From a virus (taxonomy: Duplodnaviria; Caudoviricetes): a DNA stretch of 51,518 nucleotides. The position numbers and the translations under genes were made by a program. Each line of letters starts with the position of its first letter. The first letter of the stretch is position 1. Below the pieces are notes generated by a model. That model was not told the origin of the DNA. It saw only the letters and a list, made by a program, of their open reading frames with translations, and did not search any database. The stretch covers positions 1 to 51,518 of the IMG/VR virus record IMGVR_UViG_3300017960_000020; one strand, 5' to 3'. This document shows positions 3,441 to 47,276 of this stretch, piece after piece.

Positions 3441-4112
3441 ATGCAAACCACCGAACGGACTGTCACCCACTCGGGCGGGCTCGCGAGCCTCGCCGACCGG
3501 CTCTCCAAGCCGGGATCCCTGCTGACCCCTGTGCGGGTCCAGCGCTTCACCCCGGGCGTCCCGCGCTCCGGGATGTCGGCCGCAGCCCCGGTCGATCTGC
3601 CGATCGGGACGACCCGCGAGGAGGCCGAGGAGCTCGGCGTCCCGATGGAGCGGCCCTCGGACGACCTGCACCCGGGCAACTGGGTCTGGGACGCCTGGGG
3701 GCGCGCGGCGGAGGCGTTCGAGGACTCGGAGTTCATGCGCCCGCTGGTCGTGGCGCACCTGCGGGCCGCGGCTGAGTTCGGTCCCGCCGACGCCCGCCTG
3801 GTCCAGCTCTACTGGATGAGCAGCCGGTGGGCGGACCTGTGTGAGGCGACCGACTGCGAGAGCCTCGTGGCGCTGGCGCGCGAGGCGATGGGGTTCTGGT
3901 CGGACGACGACCTGGCTTACGCGGTGGACCAGCAGTTCCAGGCCCACCGCCTCCGCACCCCGGGCCGCCCGCTCGAAGCTGTGCGCGCCGCTGACGTGTT
4001 TCCGGCGGACGAGATCATGCGCGCCGCGGCGATCCCGGCTGCCGGCGCTGCCGCTCTGGACTCCGCGCGGGTGTTCCTGCAGGGGCGGAACCGGATGGGG
4101 GTGGTCGCTTGA
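3441..4112 (+). CDS. Hypothetical protein
   Basis: ATG 3441 after AGGA; GC3-rich codon usage; stop overlaps the next start. Confidence 0.7.
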   Translation: MQTTERTVTHSGGLASLADRLSKPGSLLTPVRVQRFTPGVPRSGMSAAAPVDLPIGTTREEAEELGVPMERPSDDLHPGNWVWDAWGRAAEAFEDSEFMRPLVVAHLRAAAEFGPADARLVQLYWMSSRWADLCEATDCESLVALAREAMGFWSDDDLAYAVDQQFQAHRLRTPGRPLEAVRAADVFPADEIMRAAAIPAAGAAALDSARVFLQGRNRMGVVA

Positions 4113-4234
4113 AGATCCGATGCAAGCAATGCGGCTGGATCGGCTCGATCGGCCACACCGCCGAGTGCCAGGGGTGCGGCAGCCGCTACATCACGCCGCT
4201 GTTCCGTCGACTGCTGCGGAGGGTGATCCGATGA
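4109..4234 (+). CDS. Small zinc-ribbon protein (41 aa; not in the ORF track)
   Basis: TTG overlaps the upstream TGA. MKIRCKQCGWIGSIGHTAECQGCGSRYITPLFRRLLRRVIR has two CxxC motifs. Its stop overlaps ATG 4231. Confidence 0.6.
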   Translation: MKIRCKQCGWIGSIGHTAECQGCGSRYITPLFRRLLRRVIR

Positions 4235-4497
4235 GCGCCCTCGGTTCGATCATCGCCACGCGCGGGACCGTCCGCCTGTGGTGCTCCTCCCCCACCTGCC
4301 GCCACGAGTGGGAGGCTGAGACCGTCTCCCAGTACGGTGAGAGCTTCTTGGCTGACGCTGGCGGCGAGTGCACGCGATGCGGCTCGATTGGTACGGCTGA
4401 GGAGCCGGACTTCTACTGCAAGGAGTGCGATCGGGACACGGCGAAGTGCGAGCACGTTCACGGCTCCTGCTGGGTCTGTGGGGAGGCCATCCAATGA
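4231..4497 (+). CDS. Cys-rich zinc-finger protein
   Basis: CSSPTC, CTRC, CKEC and CWVC motifs; overlapping start and stop. Confidence 0.65.
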   Translation: MSALGSIIATRGTVRLWCSSPTCRHEWEAETVSQYGESFLADAGGECTRCGSIGTAEEPDFYCKECDRDTAKCEHVHGSCWVCGEAIQ

Positions 4498-15485: not shown

Positions 15486-15749
15486 ATGTCTGAGAATCCC
15501 CGTCCCTCGCACCAAGGCTTCGCGCTCGTCCCCAAGTGGCGCACGACCATGGTGTACTCGACGGAGGTTCCCGGAGGGGAGGCAAGGGTGATCTTCGCGG
15601 AGTGCGACAAGACCGGGTCCTCCCTGGAGGGCTATCTGGAGCGCATCGGCGACGGCAAGTGGGATGGACAGCAGACGTTCATCGCCCCCGATGGTGCCAG
15701 GTTCAGCCACGAAGCTGACCTGATCGAGCACCTGCGTCGCCAACGATGA
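15486..15749 (+). CDS. Hypothetical protein
   Basis: Fills the terL-portal gap; ATGA overlap with the portal start. Confidence 0.6.
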   Translation: MSENPRPSHQGFALVPKWRTTMVYSTEVPGGEARVIFAECDKTGSSLEGYLERIGDGKWDGQQTFIAPDGARFSHEADLIEHLRRQR

Positions 15750-18535
15750 CCAGAGCCCTCAGCCGAACCAGCCAAGCGCGCACCCCGCGCCTCGCGGTCC
15801 CCACCCAGCGGGCCACCGCCCACGAGATCAAGAGCCTGCAGCAGTGGGCCAAGAGCAAGCCGTCGAAGCGGTACGCGATGGGCGCTGAGGGGGCGCTGGT
15901 CTCCCCCCTGCGGCAGATCCCGTGGATCTACGCGGCGATCCGCAAGCTGTGGAGTGCAGTGGGTGTGGCCCCGCTGAAGTTCCGGGTCGATCAGGACCCC
16001 GAGAGCAACGATCTAGCGCCGACGGATCCGCTGGTGCGCCTGTTCGAGCGGCCGTCGCCGACGATGAGCCGCAAGGAGTACCTGACCCAGGTGGTCCAGT
16101 TCACCCAGACCACGGGCGAGGCGTTCCACGTCTTCCACGACGCGGAGGGTAGGGTGATTCGGCCGCTGGACGACGGCCTGGACGCCCCGATCCCGATGCC
16201 GGCGCAGATCACGGTCCGCCAGGGCGGCGGGCGCCTGGGGCTGCAGTACGAGCGCGGGCTGCCGAAGTCCTGGCGCTTCTCGGACGAGGAGGGCTCCCAC
16301 GAGATCCCCTTCGCCGCGGGCCTGAACGTCCGAATGCCGTCCGAGGAGGACAGGTACCGGGGCCTGGCGCCGCTGGCGCCCGTGCTGGGCATCGGGGAGG
16401 CGATGTTCCTGGCCGAGCTGATGAACCGGAAGCAGGCGAGTCGGGGCGGGCTGTCGGGTCTGGCGATGGTGAACAAGACGCGGACCCGGGACGACGTCTA
16501 CGAGACCATGCAGGAGATGGCCGACCGGGTGCAGGACTCGCTCGCGGACGGCCGGATCCCGTACATCGAGGGCGAGATCGACTTCAAGAAGCTCGTCGAC
16601 TCGCACCGGGAGATGGCGTATTCGCGGCTGTCCGAGCTCGGGCGCAAGGATATCTCGGCCGTGTTCGGGGTGCCGGACGCCGTGCTGGGCATGGGGTCGA
16701 GCAACTACGCGACCTTCGCCGGCGAGATGCGGGGCATGTGGGAGACCACGGTCCGTGATCTGCAGTGCATGATCGAGGACGCGATCAACTGGCACTTGAT
16801 CCCGCGGCTGCGAGTCGGGAGCCGAGAGGTGCAGGCCTGGGCGTACTTCGACAACTCGAAGGTGGCGTGGCTCCAGCCGGACTACGAGGAGCTCGGGCGG
16901 CAGGCCCGGGGTTTGATGGCGGTCGGCGTCCCGCGGCGCGCGGCGCTCGATCGGGTGGGCCTAGTCGAGGTCGAGGACACGGAGTTCGACGAGATCCCGA
17001 TGTTGGAGGGAGGCCTGGAGTCCTTCGCCGAGGCGGTCCGCGGCTCTGGCGACGAGTCGGCGCCAGGGCTCTCGCCTGAGCAAGCCGCAGAGTTGCGCGC
17101 GATCCTGCTGGACGTGGGCAAGGGCGCGCTGTCGCCCGAGGCTGCCGTGCTGTTGATCGCGTCCGCGCTGCCGATCGAGGAGGCGGACGCCCGCAAGATG
17201 GTCGAGGCCATCGAGATCAAGGAGCCCCAGCCGGTGCCGGCGGCGCTACAGAACCAGCCGCCGCCCGTGTCGCCTGGCCCGCCCGAGGAGCCCGACCAGG
17301 AGCGCGCCGCGCGCCCGTTCGAGATCCGCCTGTCCCCCCGGCTAGAGACCCGGACCCGCATGGTCTCCCAGACCCCCCAAGCCGAGCGGGACGCGATCTA
17401 CGAGGAGTTGGAGGCTCGACGCGAGGAGGGCGACTCCAAGATCAGCCGCGCGGTCCGCCAAGTCTGGCGCGAGGCCAAAGAACGCCAGCTCGAGCACCTG
17501 CGCGCCTTCGCTGCCGGTGGTGGGTCGCGCCTCCCCCGCCGATCGCTCTACGGCGAGGACCGCGGGATCCGCCTGCTGGGGTCCGAGTTGCGCGACCTCG
17601 CCAAGGCGATCCGCGCCGACCGGGAGCAGGGCGAGCAGCTCGTGCCCATCCTCGACTGCTGCGGCCAGGAGATCGCCGCCTGGTGGGCGCCGGTCGAGGA
17701 ACGGCAGCGCAACTGGTTCGCCGACCACGGCAACCTGGCCAGCCTGCCCGGTGGCCTGCGCCGCTTGGCGGACGTGGCCGTGTTGCGCGAGGCGGACCCG
17801 AACCTGTCTGAAGCCGAGATCGAGGCCCTGTTGGTCCTGGGGAGCCCGGAGTGGGCCAAGGAGATCGCGGAGGCCTTGGAGCCGGTGTTCCTCGACGTGC
17901 TGGGCGACGCGGTCCGCCGGGCGAACTCGGACCTCTCGATCCCGTACTTGGCCGAGCCGGACGCCGTCTTGCTGCGTCTGGCGCGGGAGAACCGGATCAA
18001 GCTGGCCCGCGACATCCAGGGCACCCTGGCGACTCGCGTGCGCTCGGCGATGGTTCGGACCCTGAGTGAGGGGCCGGCGACCGTGACGGGGATCCGGGAG
18101 CGCGTGCGCGAGACGCTCGCCGAGCTCGAGGAGACCGTCGAGGACCAGTTCGGCAAGGCCAACGACCGGGCGCTGACCATCGCGCGGACCGAGACGGCCT
18201 ACCTGGACAACGCCGCAGAGTTCCGCACCAGCGAGCTAGGCCGCGACGCCGGCGAGTTCCTGACGCACGAGTGGCTCGCAGCCTCCCGCAACTCGCCTCC
18301 CACCGGCCGCACCCGCCCGACCCACGTTGAGGTGGATCGGACAGTCCAGTTCATCGGCCAGGCGTTCCGCGTCGGCAAACACCTCCTGCTCCACCCGGGC
18401 GACAAGCAGGTCGACGCCCCCGAGGAGACCATCAACTGCCGCTGTGCGCTGCGCCGCCGCCGGCTCCAGACCGACCTCGACGAGGGTCTGATCGACCAAG
18501 CCACCTTCGACCGCCTCCAGAACGGGGCCGCCTGA
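15746..18535 (+). CDS. Portal protein fused to a MuF/SPP1-gp7-like head morphogenesis domain
   Basis: HK97-portal motifs (WIYAAIR, YRGLAPL, ISAVFGVP..LG..SNYAT) in the N-half; C-terminal RALTIARTET, TRPTH and HPGD...EETINCRC. Confidence 0.9.
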   Translation: MTRALSRTSQARTPRLAVPTQRATAHEIKSLQQWAKSKPSKRYAMGAEGALVSPLRQIPWIYAAIRKLWSAVGVAPLKFRVDQDPESNDLAPTDPLVRLFERPSPTMSRKEYLTQVVQFTQTTGEAFHVFHDAEGRVIRPLDDGLDAPIPMPAQITVRQGGGRLGLQYERGLPKSWRFSDEEGSHEIPFAAGLNVRMPSEEDRYRGLAPLAPVLGIGEAMFLAELMNRKQASRGGLSGLAMVNKTRTRDDVYETMQEMADRVQDSLADGRIPYIEGEIDFKKLVDSHREMAYSRLSELGRKDISAVFGVPDAVLGMGSSNYATFAGEMRGMWETTVRDLQCMIEDAINWHLIPRLRVGSREVQAWAYFDNSKVAWLQPDYEELGRQARGLMAVGVPRRAALDRVGLVEVEDTEFDEIPMLEGGLESFAEAVRGSGDESAPGLSPEQAAELRAILLDVGKGALSPEAAVLLIASALPIEEADARKMVEAIEIKEPQPVPAALQNQPPPVSPGPPEEPDQERAARPFEIRLSPRLETRTRMVSQTPQAERDAIYEELEARREEGDSKISRAVRQVWREAKERQLEHLRAFAAGGGSRLPRRSLYGEDRGIRLLGSELRDLAKAIRADREQGEQLVPILDCCGQEIAAWWAPVEERQRNWFADHGNLASLPGGLRRLADVAVLREADPNLSEAEIEALLVLGSPEWAKEIAEALEPVFLDVLGDAVRRANSDLSIPYLAEPDAVLLRLARENRIKLARDIQGTLATRVRSAMVRTLSEGPATVTGIRERVRETLAELEETVEDQFGKANDRALTIARTETAYLDNAAEFRTSELGRDAGEFLTHEWLAASRNSPPTGRTRPTHVEVDRTVQFIGQAFRVGKHLLLHPGDKQVDAPEETINCRCALRRRRLQTDLDEGLIDQATFDRLQNGAA

Positions 18536-38300: not shown

Positions 38301-40166
38301 CTGGACAACGACCCCACCGGGGACGTGCGGGTCCGGGCCACCACGATCGAGCTGCGGGGGGTCACCCGGCCCTCGGCGGCCCGTCGGGAGCTGACGTTCC
38401 TGCTCAACGCCTGGAAGCTCCTGCGGCTGTTCTGCGAGTTCGAGGCCTTCCACGACGCGGTCACCGTCGAGTCCGGCGACGTGGTCCTGGTCGAGCACCC
38501 GATGCCGCAGTTCGGCTTCGGCGGCATCGTCCAGGCGGACGCGAGCGGCACCGGCGGGACCACCATCGACAAGCCGATCACGCTGGCCTCGGGCGAGACC
38601 TACGAGATCGTCGTCAAGGACCAGCAGAGCAACCAGCTGGCCTTCGCCGCGGTCACGGCGCCGGCCGGGGACTACACCGCCGGCACCGCGATCGGGCACG
38701 GGGCTCTGACGGTCCAGGGCTCCACGGACACCTACCAGCCGCGCGCGGGCGACCTGTGGGCCATTGGGCGCCTGGAGAAGGCGGTCCGCCAGTTCGAGGT
38801 GCTGGAGATCAGCGTGGACCCCCAGACCTTCAACCGTCGGATCCAGTGCTTGGAGTACGACGCGGGGGTCTACGCCGAGGGCACGTTCCCGGACGCGCCC
38901 GAGGACCCGGGCACCGAGCTGTCCGCGCCCCCGCTCGACGGCGCCCAGGCCCCGGAGATCCAGGCTCTGACGGTCACGGACTCGACCTCGGTCGGCCCCG
39001 GCGGCACGGTCGTCCCCAGCGTGTCGGTCTCCTGGAAGTACCCAAGCGGGTCGATCCTGGACTCCGGCCGGGTCGAGATCTGGGCGCGGGGAATCGAAGA
39101 CCGGCAGAACGCGACTCCCGTGCTGCTCCAGGTGGCCCCCACCGAGGCCAGCTCGACCATCGTCGCGAGCCCGTACCTGGAGCCCGGGGAGGCCTACGAG
39201 TTCATCGTGCGCCCGGTCAGTTCCACCGGCGAGCGCTCTCCCCTGCGCCTGGCGCGGCGCGCGCGGATCACCTTCGGCGGACAGGTCCCCTCCCCTCCGG
39301 CCCCCGGCTCCCTGGCGGTCCGCCCCCAGGCGGACGAGGTGGTCTACGCGGTCGGCGGGGACCGCTCGAGCTCGAACGTCGAGATCCGGCGCGGCCGCGG
39401 GTGGTTGATGGCGGACATCGTCGCGGTGGTCTCGGGCGGAACCGAGGAGAGCCAGCCCACCCGGAACTTCGTCCTGGCCCCCACGTCGGCGGGTGGCAAG
39501 GCCGAGCCCACGCTGCGCGCGCGCTACCTATACGGCCGCGGCGCGGTCTCCCAGGAGGTCTCGGTCGCCCCGGCGGTCGGCGCTGACCTGGGCTTCGACA
39601 CGGCCCTGGTGTCCGTCAGCGTCGAGGACCAGGGCTCCGACTTCCTCACCGGCGCCGCCGCGGTCTCCGGCCTCGAGGTCGGCTCCGACGACGGGGAGCC
39701 CATCCTGCGCTTCCCTGACGCCACCAGCGGGGCCGCGACCGGCACCTACACCTCCCAGGTGTTCGACGCCGGTGAAGTCCGCACGATGCACGTCTCGGCC
39801 TCCCTGGACGCCCTTCAGCTTCACCCGCTGGCCTTTGGGCGCTGGCCGGTGCTGCTGGGCTCGCGGCGCGGAGCGAACTGGGACGCCTATGAGGGCCCCT
39901 TGGACCCGGCGGACCCCTACTACGGCGTCATCACCCGGCAGACCGAGATCCGGTTCTCGGATACCGCCGACCCGACGGGGGCCACCTGGCGGCCTTACCG
40001 GCCGGGCCAGTACCGCCTGCGGAGCTTCCAGCTGCGATACACCTTCACCCGCCCCGCGGGCTTCAACGGTCTGGACTTCAACTTCAAGGCCGACCGCCTG
40101 GCGGTCCAGGCCAACCCGGTCACCCCGGGGGAGCTGCCTGACGTGATCGACGGGGGCACCTTCTGA
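35376..40166 (+). CDS. Tail tip protein (gpI-like ubiquitin fold + gpJ-like hub) with LamG insertion and FN3-like region
   Basis: VWVNSALL...LAPGDHL; LAYPETALLGL; NPAWAL; WADYCDEL; LamG motifs WAHFAFTY...LYVNG...DDLALWERELTPAEI. Confidence 0.9.
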   Translation: MTELCQIHVHRLTDWTDPVGSRESQDVEFYERCTARGVLEDLEVDPEAATVWVNSALLPAGEDRRLAPGDHLTFAELPAEPFSGTLVAQALTVSNVAGAIFAGAAIFGVSRVISGIYGATEDPVAQEDFSSQTYSWGGIRTAYQAAGLKLPLCIGDVRTGGVVIQRSVEVIETEGKPKSILYLLIALSGGPVRSVAGFTEDRDDLQAEDLTGVYINGNPASNYEGVTGFVRLGTIEQEPVPGFDRIEVLEQVDLPITNEDPAVTDWSEAATYDLLSEAQAARLTLEFTQGLFEVSQSTGIQKSNSVLFDIRYRTLDALGNTTSDWLEDPRNPLIVTAATQQAFQHQIPVTFATPGVYTPPTTGQSVVLGGTDTHLRVATQSISLTAPFQQWGPNTAPEQLTCAGWLFIQSDQTTAGNLFVGWSLGDPDNTLASLAGFHVRSVESGADARILAEFGNTGSRQILGGNLQEAGIVPSSKWAHFAFTYQRDAQAGGINRARLYVNGALVDELLTVTEVQFPSGLTPRFRVGTVDGKLTEANEQSRWDDLALWERELTPAEISQLWSGGLAQAVSSGSPGLAALWRFNGDLTDETGNGNTLENAGPGAAPSYSSGVTALGQDPTPQDASRYRIEIQRRSTPSDDPLIRDEVRWENVVGITYDELAYPETALLGLHIDASEQLSGGQPTVLTDVEGRPGLRYDTGSGSWIEDFSARRNPAWALARYLTDRRFALGRFFDSSDLNGPSFAEWADYCDELLRDQRGRADVASVAAITYESAETLEIRFNAQPPSHWVTGTRLRIVELSGVTGATVSQVVLLSNLTSNLAAAALIIPVYQDSSTAEWVALFSWTDTLGANWSAVNSDGPYDAEADGATVKLEGVEERHQIDMVLDGRGVKGWDGALQIGKVGRGTPVRIGSKVRAKVSRPRSPSQLFNADSIVQGSFKLRRVPTAQTFNRAVGEILDRTKNWERNPIPVDHPELDNDPTGDVRVRATTIELRGVTRPSAARRELTFLLNAWKLLRLFCEFEAFHDAVTVESGDVVLVEHPMPQFGFGGIVQADASGTGGTTIDKPITLASGETYEIVVKDQQSNQLAFAAVTAPAGDYTAGTAIGHGALTVQGSTDTYQPRAGDLWAIGRLEKAVRQFEVLEISVDPQTFNRRIQCLEYDAGVYAEGTFPDAPEDPGTELSAPPLDGAQAPEIQALTVTDSTSVGPGGTVVPSVSVSWKYPSGSILDSGRVEIWARGIEDRQNATPVLLQVAPTEASSTIVASPYLEPGEAYEFIVRPVSSTGERSPLRLARRARITFGGQVPSPPAPGSLAVRPQADEVVYAVGGDRSSSNVEIRRGRGWLMADIVAVVSGGTEESQPTRNFVLAPTSAGGKAEPTLRARYLYGRGAVSQEVSVAPAVGADLGFDTALVSVSVEDQGSDFLTGAAAVSGLEVGSDDGEPILRFPDATSGAATGTYTSQVFDAGEVRTMHVSASLDALQLHPLAFGRWPVLLGSRRGANWDAYEGPLDPADPYYGVITRQTEIRFSDTADPTGATWRPYRPGQYRLRSFQLRYTFTRPAGFNGLDFNFKADRLAVQANPVTPGELPDVIDGGTF

Positions 40167-40849
40167 TGGGCGTCGAACGCATCGTCATCCGCCGCGGCGT
40201 CGAAGCGGACCGCGGGAGCTTCACCCCCGAAGAGGGGGAGCTGCTCGTCACCACGGACCGCAGCGAGTTGTTCGTGGGCGACGGCTCGACGGCCGGCGGC
40301 GTCAAGCTGGGGCCGATCCCGTCGGCGCCGGCCCCGCGCGCGCCCTGGTACTACTACGCCAGCTGCCAGTCCACGGTGGCGACCACCGCGGCGGTCAGCC
40401 CGAACGCGGCGATCTACCAGCCCTGGTACGTCTCCAGCAAGATCAGCCTGGACCGCATCGGGGTCTACTGCACCAGCGCCGGCACGGCCTCCCACAAGGT
40501 GCGCGTCGGACTCTACGACACGGCGCCGGACGGCCAGGTTCCCCAAGACCTGATCGTCAACTCCGGCGAGTTGATCTGCAACACGACCGGCCGCATCCAA
40601 GCGACCATCGCGGTCACACTGGAGCCGGGGCTGTACTGGACCTGCATCCTGGGCAACAACGCCACGCCGGCGTTCTCGGCCCAGAACTTCCTGGGCACGA
40701 TCCCTCAGCTCGGCAACGCGGCGGGGACCGTCACGTTCCCCAACACCTACTTCCAGGTTGCGCTCTACGCATCCGGCCTCCCCTCACGCGCGGCCGTCCT
40801 GAGCAGTCTGGCGGCCAACGCACCCCTGGTGGAGATGAGGGCGGCATGA
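40166..40849 (+). CDS. Tail fibre / receptor-binding-like protein
   Basis: N-terminal IRRG...PEEGEL..TTD...LFVGDG (Mtd/hyaluronidase N-terminal-type motif). Confidence 0.7.
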   Translation: MGVERIVIRRGVEADRGSFTPEEGELLVTTDRSELFVGDGSTAGGVKLGPIPSAPAPRAPWYYYASCQSTVATTAAVSPNAAIYQPWYVSSKISLDRIGVYCTSAGTASHKVRVGLYDTAPDGQVPQDLIVNSGELICNTTGRIQATIAVTLEPGLYWTCILGNNATPAFSAQNFLGTIPQLGNAAGTVTFPNTYFQVALYASGLPSRAAVLSSLAANAPLVEMRAA

Positions 40850-44551: not shown

Positions 44552-45202
44552 TTGATCGCGAATCTCCAACCGCTCACCAAGGACACCTGGTGGGTCTACC
44601 TGCTTGGCCTGCTGATCTCCACCGGCGGCGGCAAGCTGATCTGGGCCGGCGTCAAGAGCCTCAAGGCCAAGCTCCGCGTGCGCCGCTTCCATGCGGGCAT
44701 CGAGGCCACGGCGAAGGTCTACCACGCGCTCAACGACCTGGTCGCGCGCACCGGCGCCTCGCGCGCGATCATCCTGCGCGCGGAGAACGGCGGAGGCATC
44801 CCCACCCCAGGGCGCAGCCTCTACACCACGATCATCCAGGAGGCCTACTCGAGCCGGTCGAGCTCGATCCGGGACAGTTGGTATCGGCGACGTGCGGACG
44901 GCCCCTACGTCGACCTCCTGCGGCAGATCATCGAACGCGGTGAGGTTGCCTTGCGGCTTGATGCGATGGACGTGGGCGAGCTGCGGGACCTCTACGAGGC
45001 CAACGACGTGAAGCGGTCCCAGGTCCACATGCTGGGCTCCAACGGACACTTCATGGCCTACCTGTCAGTCAACTTCAAAGAGGACGCGGAGCTGACCGCC
45101 AAGCAGCGGGTGGCTATCGCGGAGGCCGCCTCCTACCTGCGCGCGGTCCTGGCGAAGCATGAGGAGGTCTTTCAAGTGCGGGGGGATCTGGAGGTGGATT
45201 AG
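44552..45202 (+). CDS. Membrane-anchored GAF-like domain protein (holin candidate)
   Basis: N-terminal hydrophobic WWVYLLGLLISTGGGKLIWAGV; soluble domain GASRAIILRAENGG...YLSVNF. Confidence 0.55.
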   Translation: MIANLQPLTKDTWWVYLLGLLISTGGGKLIWAGVKSLKAKLRVRRFHAGIEATAKVYHALNDLVARTGASRAIILRAENGGGIPTPGRSLYTTIIQEAYSSRSSSIRDSWYRRRADGPYVDLLRQIIERGEVALRLDAMDVGELRDLYEANDVKRSQVHMLGSNGHFMAYLSVNFKEDAELTAKQRVAIAEAASYLRAVLAKHEEVFQVRGDLEVD

Positions 45203-45399
45203 AGCCCCTCGATCTCACGCTGGAAGCACTCCAGCACGCCGAACTGCCGCGCCATGCGGCGGACGTGGGATCGCTCGATCGAAGGGTCGCGGCGCTTGCC
45301 GTGTCCGCCCAACGGAAGCCTGCGAAAGGCTGGTTTCTTGCCTGGCGGATAAATCCGGGAGTGTGTAGTTGTTGAAACCCGGGGGTGAGTGGGGCGGGC
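45199..45399 (-). pseudogene. 5'-truncated HicA-like toxin remnant (not in the ORF track)
   Basis: Open frame reads ...RLPLGGHGKRRDPSIERSHVRRMARQFGVLECFQREIEGL-stop. No start codon before the conserved part; in-frame TAG at 45400-02. Its stop overlaps the convergent gene's stop. Confidence 0.5.
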
Positions 45400-45431
45400 C
45401 TAACCGACCAGAGACCTATCCTGTTCGCCAA

Positions 45432-45460
45432 TTGTTAGGGGGCTTCGGGCGGGCTATGCT
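45432..45460 (+). promoter_or_regulatory. Putative sigma70-type promoter for the Panacea gene
   Basis: TTGTTA-17 nt-TATGCT, about 30 nt upstream of ATG 45492. Confidence 0.45.
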
Positions 45461-45491
45461 GTTTGCGCGATCCAGATGCACCCCTCCCGCG

Positions 45492-46004
45492 ATGCGCCTA
45501 CCCCATGCACGCGAGGTCGCTGACTATCTCTTGCAGCTCGCAGCTCAGGAGGAAGGCACGACCCCTCGCACGAACCTAGAGCTTCAAAAGCACCTGTACT
45601 ACGTGCAGGGCTGGGCCATCGCACGCCTAGGCCGACCGATGTTCCATGAGGACATAGAGGCATGGCACTACGGCCCGGTAGTGCCAAAGGTCTATCGGGC
45701 GGTGTGCGAGTATGAGGCGCACCCGATACCAACCCCAGCCGAAGACCCGTACTTGGTCGCCGAGGACCGGTGCTTCATCGCAAGCGTCTGGGAGGACTAC
45801 AAGGGGTTCACTGCTTCTGAGCTGGCACGCCTAACGCATGAGGAAGAGCCCTGGGCCAACGCCTGGGAAGGCCAACCTCACGGGGCGACCTCGAAGATCA
45901 AGATCCGCAAGCATGAGCTTGCGAGCTTCTTTGAGTCGCAGATGCCGAGTTCTCAGGATAGGGGCGATCTCCTGGGCGCTACCGACAAAGAGGCTTCTGA
46001 GTGA
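45492..46004 (+). CDS. Panacea-domain (DUF4065/SocA/GepA-like) antitoxin
   Basis: AREVADYLL, TNLELQKHLYYVQGW, FHEDIEAWHYGPVVPKVY, ASELARLTHEEEPW. Confidence 0.9.
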   Translation: MRLPHAREVADYLLQLAAQEEGTTPRTNLELQKHLYYVQGWAIARLGRPMFHEDIEAWHYGPVVPKVYRAVCEYEAHPIPTPAEDPYLVAEDRCFIASVWEDYKGFTASELARLTHEEEPWANAWEGQPHGATSKIKIRKHELASFFESQMPSSQDRGDLLGATDKEASE

Positions 46005-46158
46005 ATACTGGCCTACCCCTCGGCGCGGCTACTGGACCCTATCCGACTCCTGAACGCCCAGTTACACACTATGAAGTCACCTAGATAAGCCAGCCGGATG
46101 GCCGTAAGTGGGGGTGGCTTAGAGGTTTAGCGGCCCGCCACCCCCACTCCGGCACCTT

Positions 46159-46236
46159 GCCCCCGTGGTGGAACTGGTAGACACACCTCCTTTGCAAGGA
46201 GGCGCCTTGTCCGGGCATGCGAGTTCGCCGGGGGCA
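46159..46236 (+). tRNA. tRNA-like gene: Leu-type body, TGC (Ala) anticodon, truncated T-arm, no encoded CCA
   Basis: Acceptor GCCCCCG/CGGGGGC-A; D-arm TGGTGGAACTGGTAGACAC; anticodon stem CCTCC/GGAGG with loop TTTGCAA; long variable arm GCCT/GGGC; T-arm only GCGAGTTCGC. Confidence 0.75.
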
Positions 46237-46340
46237 CTTTCCACCTAGCAAGACCCGAGGGCCTACCAGGTCCCGAGGGCGCATTTAAGATATCGGATGA
46301 TCCTGGCCTGTCCAGGCCTCCATTCCACAATGGAGTGACA

Positions 46341-46529
46341 ATGGGAGACTCGGAGAGCAAGCGGGGGCCCAAGGGCCGCAAGACCGGCCCCGAGCTGGAA
46401 CGCCTCAAGATCGAGGAGGAGAACGCAGCCGCGGCCCTGGACCGCCTGCTGGGGCTAGAGGAGCAGCCCGAGGGAGAGGGCGACGAGGACGAGGAGAGCG
46501 AGCCCCAGGACCGGGAGCGGCGGGGCTAG
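46341..46529 (+). CDS. Small charged hypothetical protein
   Basis: GGAG RBS; KTGPELERLKIEE followed by an acidic tail. Confidence 0.6.
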   Translation: MGDSESKRGPKGRKTGPELERLKIEEENAAAALDRLLGLEEQPEGEGDEDEESEPQDRERRG

Positions 46530-46685: not shown

Positions 46686-46859
46686 CTATGAGCCCCGACC
46701 GCCGCGCTCGTAGGCGCTGACGGCAGCCTTGCCCCTTCCAATAGCCGCCCCGAGTTCCGCCTGACTCTTCCGCGCAAGCCTCCGAGCAAATCGGAGGCGT
46801 TCCCCCTGCGCGCGCTGGGCATCCTTCAGCGACGGCGCGCTTTCGGCGTCGGAGGGCAT
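46686..46859 (-). CDS. XRE/Cro-CI HTH regulator, apparently truncated
   Basis: GERLRFARRLARKSQAELGAAIGRGKAAVSAYERG, then a stop four codons later; divergent from the xis-like gene. Confidence 0.7.
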   Translation of the reverse strand: MPSDAESAPSLKDAQRAQGERLRFARRLARKSQAELGAAIGRGKAAVSAYERGGRGS

Positions 46860-47021
46860 AGCCTCCAGTGTGGGGATGGCGGGAAGCATGGGGCTAGTGG
46901 GAACGCTGAATAGTAGGGGCCCCGCAGTCCCACTGCGGCGACCGTTTGGCTTTTTTGACTTTCCGCGCACCCCAGGAGACTCCAGCCGCCTTAGGTTGGC
47001 GCCCGAAGGAGGCACCAGCCC

Positions 47022-47276
47022 ATGACCACCCAAGCTCAAGGCCGCGTCACGCGGCTCCCCAAGCGCAAACCGCGCGCATGGATCACCCCGGCGGACGCCG
47101 CGGACTACCTAAACCGAGGTCGCAGCACCATTTATCGGTACTGCGAGGAGGGCCACCTGGCCCACTGGCGCGAGCCGGGATCCCGCCAGCTGAAGATCTG
47201 CGCCAAGTCTGTGGAGGACTACGGCCGCAAGATCGACGGGCACGAGCTGCCCTCGAACGAAGGCGAGGCAGCCTGA
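47022..47276 (+). CDS. Excisionase-like HTH (HTH_17) DNA-binding protein
   Basis: GGAGG RBS; WITPADAADYLNRGRSTIYRYCEEGHL. Confidence 0.8.
   Translation: MTTQAQGRVTRLPKRKPRAWITPADAADYLNRGRSTIYRYCEEGHLAHWREPGSRQLKICAKSVEDYGRKIDGHELPSNEGEAA

Follow-up and report, generated by a model that had tools for sequence, protein, structure and literature searches.

A phage-borne tRNA element with a leucine-type body, an alanine anticodon and a deleted T arm, probably an inactive copy of a mobile, putative missense-suppressor tRNA

The window, that is, the whole stretch of 51,518 nucleotides analysed here (IMG/VR record IMGVR_UViG_3300017960_000020, a virus of the Caudoviricetes), carries a tRNA-derived element that lies between a gene for a Panacea-domain protein and two genes with regulatory features. 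The features of the locus and of the element are as follows.

45369-46004, + strand: gene for a protein with a Panacea (SocA-like antitoxin) domain (PF13274, 72.9 bits; phrog_1281)
46093-46153, + strand: hairpin rich in G+C, immediately 5′ of the element and not followed by a T run (from folding)
46159-46236, + strand: tRNA-derived element with a class II leucine-type scaffold, anticodon TGC, A73 and a short T arm (from RF00005, the family model R1 and the alignment with 30 relatives)
46159-46165, + strand: 5′ strand of the acceptor stem, 7/7 pairs with 46229-46235 (from the sequence; helix 1 co-varies in the family)
Directly after the acceptor 5′ strand, + strand: U8 and G9 (from the sequence)
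46168-46184, + strand: leucine-type D arm of 17 nt with a 3-pair stem (3/3) and the invariant GG in the loop (invariant columns in the alignment A1)
46186-46202, + strand: anticodon arm with a 5/5-pair stem (46186-46190 with 46198-46202) and a 7-nt loop (46191-46197)
46193-46195, + strand: anticodon TGC (from the sequence and RF00005; ARAGORN reads the same loop as tgc in relatives)
46203-46218, + strand: variable region of 16 nt with a 4/4-pair stem (46204-46207 with 46213-46216), a class II hallmark
46219-46228, + strand: T-arm remnant of 10 nt (7-column gap in A1; RF00005 alignment)
46229-46236, + strand: 3′ strand of the acceptor stem and discriminator A at 46236 (from the sequence)
46686-47039, − strand: candidate HTH (Cro/CI-type) regulator (weak: HTH_31, 19.7 bits, below the cut-off; phrog_4 repressor)
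47022-47276, + strand: excisionase-family DNA-binding protein (TIGR01764, 32.9 bits, cut-off 28.8)

The product of the Panacea-domain gene scores 70.8 bits against the NCBIfam SocA_antitoxin model, below its cut-off of 190, and no relatives of it were confirmed in viral contigs. The stop codon of the gene is located 155 nt upstream of the tRNA-derived element on the same strand, and the hairpin between the two, which folds at −36.6 kcal/mol over 46085-46160 (z −2.0), was not called as a terminator. Among cultured phages the major capsid protein has distant matches only (<30% identity), which leaves no close phage for a synteny comparison, and none of the listed public runs that hold the stretch is an RNA run.

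The element at 46159-46236 is a real tRNA gene derivative. Rfam with default filters gives no match in the window, and ARAGORN, to which the initial annotation had pointed as a check, calls no tRNA there. Once the filters are relaxed, RF00005 reaches 34.7 bits over 46159-46236 (E 1.5e-5; gathering score 29), with just 2 nt of the element aligned in place of the T loop. R1, our own model of the family built from 31 members with the window element among them, scores 74.7 bits on the element (E 8e-17) and 73-79 bits on intact members outside its training set. Together, the two E values rule out a chance resemblance to tRNA.

The initial annotation had described the element as a chimera in which a leucine-type scaffold carries an alanine anticodon, and this description is borne out by the sequence, by R1 and by A1, an alignment of 31 rows that comprises the window element and 30 relatives. 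The variable region, with its 16 nt and its stem, is not the short-loop class I body of tRNA-Ala and is most like that of the relative L076 in the alignment. A leucine anticodon (NAG or NAA) is absent and is replaced by TGC, which is of the NGC alanine type, and the sequence encodes no CCA. The discriminator A73 is a leucine identity element, and the corresponding column is A in at least 90% of the 31 rows. Pair 3:70 is C-G in the window element and, across the 31 rows, is C-G in 19, G-C in seven, A-U in two and unpaired in three; the G-U that would make the alanine identity pair G3:U70 (PMC7609411) never occurs.

Comparison with ordinary tRNAs points in the same direction. The next-best matches of R1 in five host genomes, at 71-86 bits, were normal tRNA-Leu in all 23 further genes read, with the anticodons taa, caa, tag, cag and gag, and other tRNA types in these genomes scored at most 55 bits. 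Searched with blastn, the 5′ region of the element matches 16 records of Stenotrophomonas phages weakly (E 0.3; 29 nt at 89.7% identity), and in 14 of them a tRNA-Leu is annotated at the matched place. Intact members of the family thus have all features of a bacterial tRNA-Leu except the leucine anticodon, and they are without the alanine mark. ARAGORN labels them tRNA-Ala from the anticodon alone, and the annotation of the family genes as 'tRNA-Ala' in genomes is probably wrong. Neither LeuRS nor SerRS nor AlaRS reads the anticodon (PMC11028032; PMC11415595). With the anticodon loop masked, the window element is 74% identical to other UGC tRNAs versus 66% to ordinary tRNA-Leu; outside tight sub-groups, the identity to other UGC tRNAs is little above that to ordinary tRNA-Leu, and judging from these identities the UGC tRNAs may go back to several sources.

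In all, 32 relatives combine TGC with full length and a normal T arm (one viral, 12 genomic and 19 metagenomic), a count that comes from DNA searches which all required a loop with TGC and which therefore cannot show that TGC is favoured on leucine scaffolds. The condition named in the initial annotation, that all relatives carry leucine anticodons, is not what was found, and since intact TGC relatives exist, simple decay of a leucine tRNA is not the explanation of the element. The single viral relative is L002, and an exact 38-nt stretch of the window element has no match in viral contigs. In bacterial genome contigs, 66 pattern matches yielded 12 tRNA genes at 11 loci, whereas the remaining 55 had no tRNA at the pattern, about 50 chance matches being expected by our own estimate; in metagenome contigs, 19 of 25 pattern matches proved to be intact TGC tRNAs. 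One further candidate, L003, was rejected as a chance match of this kind without a tRNA. Judged by record title, the carriers are Azospirillum, Parvibaculum, Allosphingosinicella and Rhodopila, then Acidobacteriota, Ca. Sulfotelmatobacter and Terriglobia, Bacteroidota, Bacillota and Clostridia, and Zixiibacteriota, and at least one cultured isolate, Azospirillum cavernae K2W22B-5, carries two tandem copies (L004). The closest relative, L076, is 81% identical to the window element (62/77); its T arm is complete, its discriminator is A73 and its CCA is encoded. The relatives share a layout of seven acceptor and five T-stem pairs with a 3-pair D stem and a large D loop. In the family alignment 97.0% of 740 cells are paired, and compensatory changes on both sides were observed in 21 of 24 pairs, a number reached by none of 500 shuffles; in the variable-arm helix (helix 4), all four pairs have changed on both sides.

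Against this background the T arm of the window element stands apart, as it comprises 10 nt versus 17 nt (a 5-pair stem and a 7-nt loop) in 30/30 aligned relatives, which agrees with the deficit of 7 nt noted in the initial annotation. In A1 the 7-column gap falls exactly in the T loop and the 3′ strand of the T stem, and the deletion may be inferred to have arisen between short direct repeats. Across 45900-46500, assembled contigs of the Logan collection from four runs of four studies show neither insertions nor deletions, so that assembly error does not account for the short T arm; this check, which upholds the earlier reading of the arm, was made on contigs and not on raw reads, and rare variants could escape it. 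Two of the runs (X1 and X2) may be the source samples of the window, X3 and X4 are not flagged as such, and the short form is present across sediment and seawater samples. Outside the T arm the stems are flawless, with 7/7, 3/3, 5/5 and 4/4 pairs, and as an old pseudogene should show more damage, either the loss is recent or the rest of the element is under constraint. Two pairs of loci, L071/L082 and L079/L093, were considered as further T-arm deletions and rejected, since they share the 5′ half only and then diverge. Fixation of the deletion across samples is equally expected for a tolerated and for a useful form.

The family is mobile. Many relatives sit within insertion sequences of the IS1595 family, a name that derives from the Pfam domains PF12762 and PF12760, and transposase domains adjoin the tRNA at eight loci. 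At L081 and L088, the tRNA lies together with a PF12762 transposase and a coiled-coil/HTH gene inside terminal inverted repeats, which are in turn bordered by direct repeats of 8 bp without a mismatch. Between the Azospirillum and Bacteroidota copies the identity is 88-90%, versus 68% between the former and the best tRNA-Leu of Azospirillum itself, and their neighbouring proteins are 51% identical. A gene for a coiled-coil/winged-helix protein usually adjoins the tRNA, and in many relatives the two share a strand, with the end of this partner gene 41-134 nt upstream of the tRNA; at L076 and L046 the partner gene instead follows the tRNA. Homologues of the partner protein also adjoin other class II tRNAs with non-cognate anticodons, namely UUA, UAU, GCA, CCA, UAA and CAA. 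Among these partner tRNAs self-complementary anticodon loops looked enriched, a post hoc observation which the CCA and CAA cases do not fit. A 'private recoding', in which the partner gene would need its tRNA, was considered but not adopted. The two partner genes linked to UUA tRNAs (including the L099 ORF translation) have no in-frame stops, and the cognate codons of the tRNA are rare or absent in the neighbouring protein gene; GCA occurs at a hydrophobic heptad column in two partner genes only.

None of this equipment could be recognised in the window. A profile search found no homologue of the partner protein among the window ORFs at E < 0.01 (the 64-aa ORF at 46335-46529 matches the L076 partner at E 2.4), no transposase is encoded by the scanned window ORFs, and the IS1595 end motif has no match in the window with up to three mismatches.

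The best explanation is probably that the window element is a phage-borne, T-arm-deleted and likely inactive copy of a mobile leucine-type missense-suppressor tRNA. Intact members would be charged with leucine by LeuRS, which ignores the anticodon, and would insert leucine at GCA and GCG codons, acting as missense suppressors, and the family moves on IS1595-family insertion sequences, usually with the coiled-coil/winged-helix gene, and on phages, and often lies in the vicinity of toxin-antitoxin genes. The 7 nt lost from the window copy cover the T loop for the most part and the 3′ strand of the T stem, so that the copy cannot form the T-loop/D-loop elbow on which RNase P, the CCA-adding enzyme, EF-Tu and the ribosome depend. 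Since the elbow is lost and the partner gene and a transposase are absent, the copy is most likely an inactive relic in the accessory region of the phage, between the Panacea-domain gene and the regulatory genes. Of the three options put forward in the initial annotation, a missense-type tRNA disabled by deletion accordingly fits best, as the short arm is found in 0/30 relatives and both companion genes are missing. The codon usage of the phage bears on the same question: a tRNA with UGC would probably decode GCG as well, and GCG accounts for 42% of the alanine codons of the phage. An active copy would be costly, which may explain the loss, yet it also calls into question a role of the intact copies in translation.

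A tentative alternative, judged rather unlikely, is that the RNA without a T arm functions outside translation, as a non-chargeable decoy or competitor for an anticodon-loop nuclease, or as a further tRNA-binding partner with a link to the toxin-antitoxin-like genes nearby. It would agree with the intact acceptor stem and alanine-type anticodon stem-loop, with the perfection of all stems but the T arm, with the fixation of the short form in the contigs of the four runs and with the Panacea-domain gene just upstream on the same strand. The vicinity of toxin-antitoxin genes, seen as suggestive in the initial annotation, does recur in the family, where ParE and HTH genes (L035), a Panacea gene (L070), a PIN gene (L066) and NYN genes (L055, L073, L075 and L085) lie near relatives, an association of vicinity only. 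However, with the short arm in none of the 30 aligned relatives the shape is not conserved, no nuclease gene was recognised beside the element, and the ORF at 44552-45202 has no family match.

More doubtful is a broader reading, according to which phages and bacteria circulate 'mistranslation modules' made of leucine- or serine-type class II tRNAs with foreign sense or stop anticodons, and the window copy is a non-chargeable capture of one of them. The anticodons of such modules would be UGC, UUA, UAU, GCA, CCA, UAA and CAA, on bodies whose synthetases ignore the anticodon; the coiled-coil/winged-helix protein would be the partner, and IS1595-family transposons and phages would be the movers. 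When expressed, the tRNAs would recode GCA and GCG as leucine, and other codons accordingly, as a regulated toxin-like or adaptive device, and loss of the T arm would have made the window RNA non-chargeable with the alanine anticodon loop still displayed.

The element closely follows a protein gene of the same orientation, as many relatives do (at 41-134 nt in these), and a strong hairpin lies directly 5′ of it. Both features would also suit a signal by which the 3′ end of a late or Panacea transcript is processed or stabilised, with cutting by tRNA-processing enzymes and with an irrelevant anticodon. The T-loop/D-loop elbow is the main handle for RNase P, though, and is precisely the missing part, and in L076 and L046 the tRNA precedes the gene, which makes such a signal improbable.

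It is highly unlikely that the element is the remnant of an attachment site, where tRNA-like sequence would have served site-specific integration into a tRNA gene of the host or been left behind by it. The excisionase-family gene is 0.8 kb away, and tRNA-Leu 3′ fragments lie beside coiled-coil/HTH homologues in other genomes (L106, L108, L120, L121 and L122), but att sites carry 3′ parts of tRNA genes, whereas the element keeps the whole 5′ half and both acceptor strands, its TGC is the anticodon of no normal host tRNA-Leu read, and no tyrosine or serine recombinase is present in a record rated 100% complete by CheckV (the whole record searched with PF00589 and PF00239, no match at E ≤ 1). There is equally little to be said for a T-arm-reduced tRNA that is still active in translation, as in nematode mitochondria, because mitochondrial tRNAs of this type depend on specialised factors, for which no gene was recognised in the window, and CCA is not encoded. 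The mitochondrial tRNAs do resemble the window element, as their T arm is either missing or about 10 nt long, and they are processed and aminoacylated (PMC7609411), but their reduced arm is conserved and functional, in contrast to the one-off among the 31 aligned members described here, and the literature, as partly available, held no bacterial or phage precedent.

Natural code-breaking tRNAs are few. The nearest published parallel to the family of which the window element is probably an inactive copy is the allo-tRNAs of Acidobacteria, Clostridia and Proteobacteria (Mukai et al. 2017, PMC5389517). Both groups are class II with a long variable arm and an anticodon that mismatches the predicted identity, the allo-tRNAs exploit, and the present family would exploit, a synthetase that ignores the anticodon, and both occur in soil or sediment bacteria, often near toxin-antitoxin and transposon-related genes, with active as well as damaged copies. 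In the main text of that paper, however, the allo-tRNAs have an 8/4 or 9/3 layout of acceptor and T stem, a tRNA-Sec-like D arm (long stem, tetraloop) and mostly G73 or U73 with a predicted serine identity, whereas in the present family the layout is the canonical 7/5, the D arm is leucine-type and the discriminator is A73. Neither 'tRNALeu' nor 'UGC' appears in that main text, and most allo-tRNA-UAU species may not serve translation according to its authors.

The nev-tRNAs of nematodes are likewise class II and leucine-type, with non-leucine anticodons (Gly CCC, Ile UAU), and are charged with leucine in vitro; as described, they are eukaryotic nuclear genes of nematodes only, not on mobile elements and without UGC (PMC3333845, PMC4300185), and the resemblance is one of logic only and not of descent. 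Another natural bacterial mismatch of anticodon and identity is found in tRNA-ProA/ProX with ProRSx of Streptomyces and relatives (PMC11415595, PMC10365949), the function of tRNA-ProX being called unknown in a review (PMC11415595). These are class I proline-type tRNAs with a dedicated synthetase, whereas the domains of the genes neighbouring the present family include no synthetase.

In the open literature, supplements aside, no report was found of a leucine-type tRNA with UGC, nor, in the open literature, of a tRNA carried by IS1595 or of a suppressor tRNA in such an insertion sequence. What emerges is a canonical-shaped leucine-type tRNA with an alanine anticodon which occurs across several phyla, is transposed, as seen in two target-duplicated elements, and is carried by phages. 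The window copy, most likely dead, is of value mainly because it led to this family and illustrates how such a gene can be lost once a phage has captured it, while the tandem copies of A. cavernae K2W22B-5 make expression, charging and alanine-to-leucine substitution directly testable. The two target-duplicated elements, L081 and L088, resemble IS1595-family insertion sequences in their transposase, terminal inverted repeats and 8-bp target duplications. Members of that family with passengers presumably exist (ISfinder), and it is by the passengers, a tRNA gene and a coiled-coil/winged-helix protein, that these two differ.

The tRNA-derived element at window positions 46159-46236 (+) reads from its 5′ end as a 7-pair acceptor stem, U8 and G9, a 17-nt D arm, a 5-pair anticodon stem with TGC at the anticodon position of a 7-nt loop, and a 16-nt variable region with a 4-pair stem. 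The place of the T arm is taken by 10 nt, followed by the 3′ acceptor strand and the discriminator A, and CCA is not encoded. Pair 3:70 is C-G, and the reading thus agrees with the initial annotation, which had described an alanine anticodon without the G3:U70 pair and a T arm 7 nt too short. ARAGORN, which the annotation had proposed as a check, called no tRNA anywhere in the record, and the Rfam tRNA model missed the element with default filters; with permissive filters it scored 34.7 bits (gathering score 29, E 1.5e-5), with only 2 nt aligned in the T-loop place. The minimum-energy fold (z -2.3) is not a cloverleaf, as expected with one arm missing.

The short T arm likewise stood up in assemblies of public runs. 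Logan contigs of four public runs from four studies (sediment and seawater metagenomes, two of them possibly the source samples) cover 45900-46500 with no indel, these being contigs rather than reads, from which rare variants could escape, and the short arm is therefore a property of the phage population and not an assembly error. In one of these runs a short contig (60 nt, depth 2.8) links 46000 directly to 46106, leaving out 105 nt (46001-46105) of the spacer that separates the Panacea gene from the hairpin preceding the element, and may represent a minor deletion variant.

The window is a complete, linear IMG/VR virus record of 51,518 bases (CheckV 100% complete, G+C ~0.69) with recognizable tailed-phage genes, and no tyrosine or serine recombinase was found in it. 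The element is located between the tail/accessory genes and the regulatory genes, directly after a G+C-rich hairpin:

Position not listed: YqaJ and RecT recombination genes; large terminase; HK97-type capsid; gpJ-like tail protein; metallophosphoesterase/exonuclease
15746-18535: portal fused to a Mu F domain
40166-40849: tail-region protein with an N-terminal Mtd_N domain (major tropism determinant, 39.6 bits)
44552-45202: 216-aa ORF upstream of the Panacea gene, hydrophobic stretch at its start
45369-46004 (+): gene with a Panacea (SocA-like antitoxin) domain, ending 155 nt before the element
46159-46236 (+): tRNA-derived element
46686-47039 (-): HTH regulator candidate, just past the element
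47022-47276: excisionase-family protein, just past the element

Relatives were sought with a degenerate pattern comprising a Leu-type D arm, six free positions and a loop with TGC. Since the pattern fixes both D arm and loop, the counts below do not reflect the frequency of UGC relative to other anticodons on the same body, and variants with a different loop context, such as locus L102, are missed.

Pattern matches and class II tRNAs (tgc) among them
Viral contigs: 2 matches, one by chance; 1 tRNA
Bacterial and archaeal genome contigs: 66 loci, ~50 estimated as chance matches; tRNAs at 11 loci (12 genes, 85-90 nt)
Metagenome contigs, tighter pattern: 25 loci; tRNAs at 19

Full-T-arm relatives with TGC, which the initial annotation had suggested looking for, thus exist in all three collections. 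The viral L002 is 86 nt long, with a full T arm, A73 and CCA, and the closest relative, L076 from a metagenome contig, is identical at 62 of 77 aligned positions, with a very similar variable arm, a complete T arm, A73 and CCA. Genome carriers, named by record title, are Azospirillum cavernae, Parvibaculum, Allosphingosinicella, Rhodopila, an Acidobacteriota MAG and Ca. Sulfotelmatobacter, as well as Terriglobia, Bacteroidota, Bacillota, Clostridia and Zixiibacteriota. In the cultured isolate A. cavernae K2W22B-5 (L004) two tandem copies (4043-4131 and 4291-4379), which differ at two positions and are separated by 248 nt, both follow a partner gene. The six metagenome loci without a tRNA call are either cut by contig ends (two) or have the 5′ half only (four). 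Two pairs of loci, L071 with L082 and L079 with L093, have a common Leu-type 5′ half up to the TGC loop and then unrelated sequence, which could reflect an intron, a recombination junction or chance.

The element and 30 relatives, with L073 and L085 left out as identical duplicates of L055, were aligned in 31 rows and scored against a cloverleaf with a variable-arm helix. In this alignment 97.0% of 740 cells are paired and 21 of 24 pairs change on both sides; none of 500 shuffles reaches any of five measures, and pairing falls to 36-49% when the partners are slid. The family may have had more than one origin. The co-variation could in part be inherited from different ancestral tRNA-Leu genes, although the tight sub-group formed by L018, L081 and similar members shows compensatory changes while TGC is kept. 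Members of this sub-group (L018, L070, L072, L074, L078, L080, L081, L088, L089, L091, L094 and L102) also carry C instead of the near-universal T at the second T-loop base (position 55), a trait kept while other positions vary by compensatory changes. The element falls in a looser sub-group with L076, L020, L035, L086, L087 and L077, and no other row has a T-arm gap.

The leucine-type scaffold claimed in the initial annotation is upheld by a covariance model built from the alignment, for which, in five host genomes, the next-best hits after the UGC tRNAs were ordinary tRNA-Leu in all 23 further genes read (71-86 bits), with other tRNA types at 55 bits or less. Each host accordingly retains a normal leucine set, to which the UGC tRNA, with its Leu-type body, is an addition. 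Leucine identity elements are A73 and tertiary features of the D loop; the discriminator A is found in at least 90% of the rows, the element included, and G3:U70 in none of the 31. LeuRS, SerRS and AlaRS make no use of the anticodon (PMC11028032, PMC11415595). The UGC family would then be charged with leucine and read GCA/GCG.

In many loci the tRNA directly adjoins a partner gene whose product (~140-200 aa) has a coiled coil in its N-terminal and a winged helix in its C-terminal part. It lies 41-134 nt upstream on the same strand in L018, L070, L072, L078, L081 and L094, also upstream in L004 and L011 (proteins 51% identical), and downstream in L046 and L076 (35% identical, E 3e-16). The partner of L086 matches Pfam HARE-HTH with 43.9 bits and that of L081 weakly; a protein atlas places the partner in 'hypothetical protein' clusters, mostly of Acidobacteriota, with HARE-HTH and a BlaI-like winged helix as leads. 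An IS1595-family transposase (PF12762, PF12760) adjoins the pair in eight loci, and in L081 (119-2525) and L088 (approximately 381-2853) terminal inverted repeats enclose tRNA, partner gene and transposase between perfect 8-bp direct repeats; both loci hold a transposed unit of ~2.4 kb in which the tRNA rides as a passenger. In L087 (1516-5265) 52-nt inverted repeats enclose a 3.75-kb unit, which carries an extra ImmA/IrrE-type peptidase-HTH gene. The UGC tRNAs of Azospirillum and Bacteroidota are 88-90% identical, compared with only 68% identity to Azospirillum's own best tRNA-Leu, which fits horizontal spread.

Other settings are phages or prophages, with L002 adjoining terminase and portal genes and L035 between a ParE-toxin/HTH pair and a terminase, and chromosomes, with the identical L055, L073 and L085 beside an NYN-domain gene and miaA-hfq. 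In this Terriglobia lineage, which includes L075, the tRNA is upstream of miaA, hfq and hflX, the NYN domain is PIN-like RNase, and an IS1-like transposase fragment lies ~0.8 kb away. The toxin-antitoxin surroundings noted for the element recur in relatives:

Toxin-antitoxin-type genes within ~2 kb
Window: Panacea
L070: Panacea
L035: ParE plus HTH
L066: PIN
L055 group and L075: NYN

When the partner profile was run over 401 Acidobacteriota genomes with the anticodon left free, it matched 25 places in 17 genomes, one being the seed; beside the 24 new ones stood a full-length class II tRNA (10), the 3′ two-thirds of a tRNA-Leu (5) or nothing detected (9). Three full-length tRNAs have Leu-like bodies with A73 (UUA twice, UGC once), and the others, with G73 and a different D arm, carry UAA, GCA, UAU (three identical copies in one genome), CCA and CAA and are probably serine-type, both the leucine and the serine labels being drawn from discriminator, D arm and model scores and not from isotype-specific models. 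The theme is therefore wider than UGC: class II bodies served by anticodon-ignoring synthetases carry anticodons of other amino acids or a stop codon. The homologues at L099, L100, L101, L103, L104/L115/L119, L111 and L118 adjoin tRNAs with UUA (ochre), UAA, CCA, GCA, UAU and CAA. Several loops (UGC, UUA, UAU) are self-complementary hexamers, a post hoc pattern that fails for CCA and CAA. The tRNA-Leu fragments (CAG/UAG type) at L106, L108, L120, L121 and L122 look like attachment-site duplications of integrated elements.

The nearest described system is that of the allo-tRNAs (main text of PMC5389517), which likewise combine a class II body with a non-cognate anticodon, occur in Acidobacteria and other bacteria, frequently have toxin-antitoxin systems or transposon-related genes nearby, and include both active and inactive copies. 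Their commonest anticodon is UAU and many may stay unused in translation (PMC5389517). In contrast to the 7/5, Leu-type, A73 layout of the UGC family, allo-tRNAs have an 8/4 or 9/3 layout, a D arm like that of tRNA-Sec and G or U at position 73, and neither 'tRNALeu' nor 'UGC' occurs in that main text, supplements aside. Nematode nev-tRNAs offer a eukaryotic parallel, with Leu-type class II bodies, Gly or Ile anticodons and leucylation in vitro. Neither a leucine-type tRNA with UGC nor an IS1595-carried tRNA turned up in our literature search.

Three features set the element apart from its family: 7 nt of the T arm are missing, a profile search found no partner gene in the window (the downstream 64-aa ORF is unrelated, E 2.4), and neither a transposase nor an IS end is present there. 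A tRNA without a T loop lacks the elbow for RNase P, the CCA-adding enzyme, EF-Tu and the ribosome. With alanine codons in the phage's own genes including GCA (4.8%) and GCG (42%), a working UGC tRNA that inserted Leu would burden the phage, a plausible reason for inactivation. Taken with the lack of CCA, these points make it probable that the element derives from a captured missense-suppressor tRNA and is now an inactive relic. The strongest reservation concerns the intact state of all parts except the T arm and the fixation of the short form across samples, which would also suit a non-translational RNA, either a decoy or linked to toxin-antitoxin genes, a possible but distinctly less favored reading, or a role in processing, which is less likely still; derivation from an attachment site and remaining activity in translation are both unlikely, each with very little probability.

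Beside the presumed relic, the ORF at 44552-45202 has no family match in Pfam, PHROGs, NCBIfam or PADLOC and is by position a candidate cognate toxin of the Panacea gene. A Mu F-like domain is fused to the portal in each of the three carriers of the UGC tRNA that are phages or prophages (window 15746-18535, L002 2536-4662, L035 3923-6244), the portals themselves belonging to different families.
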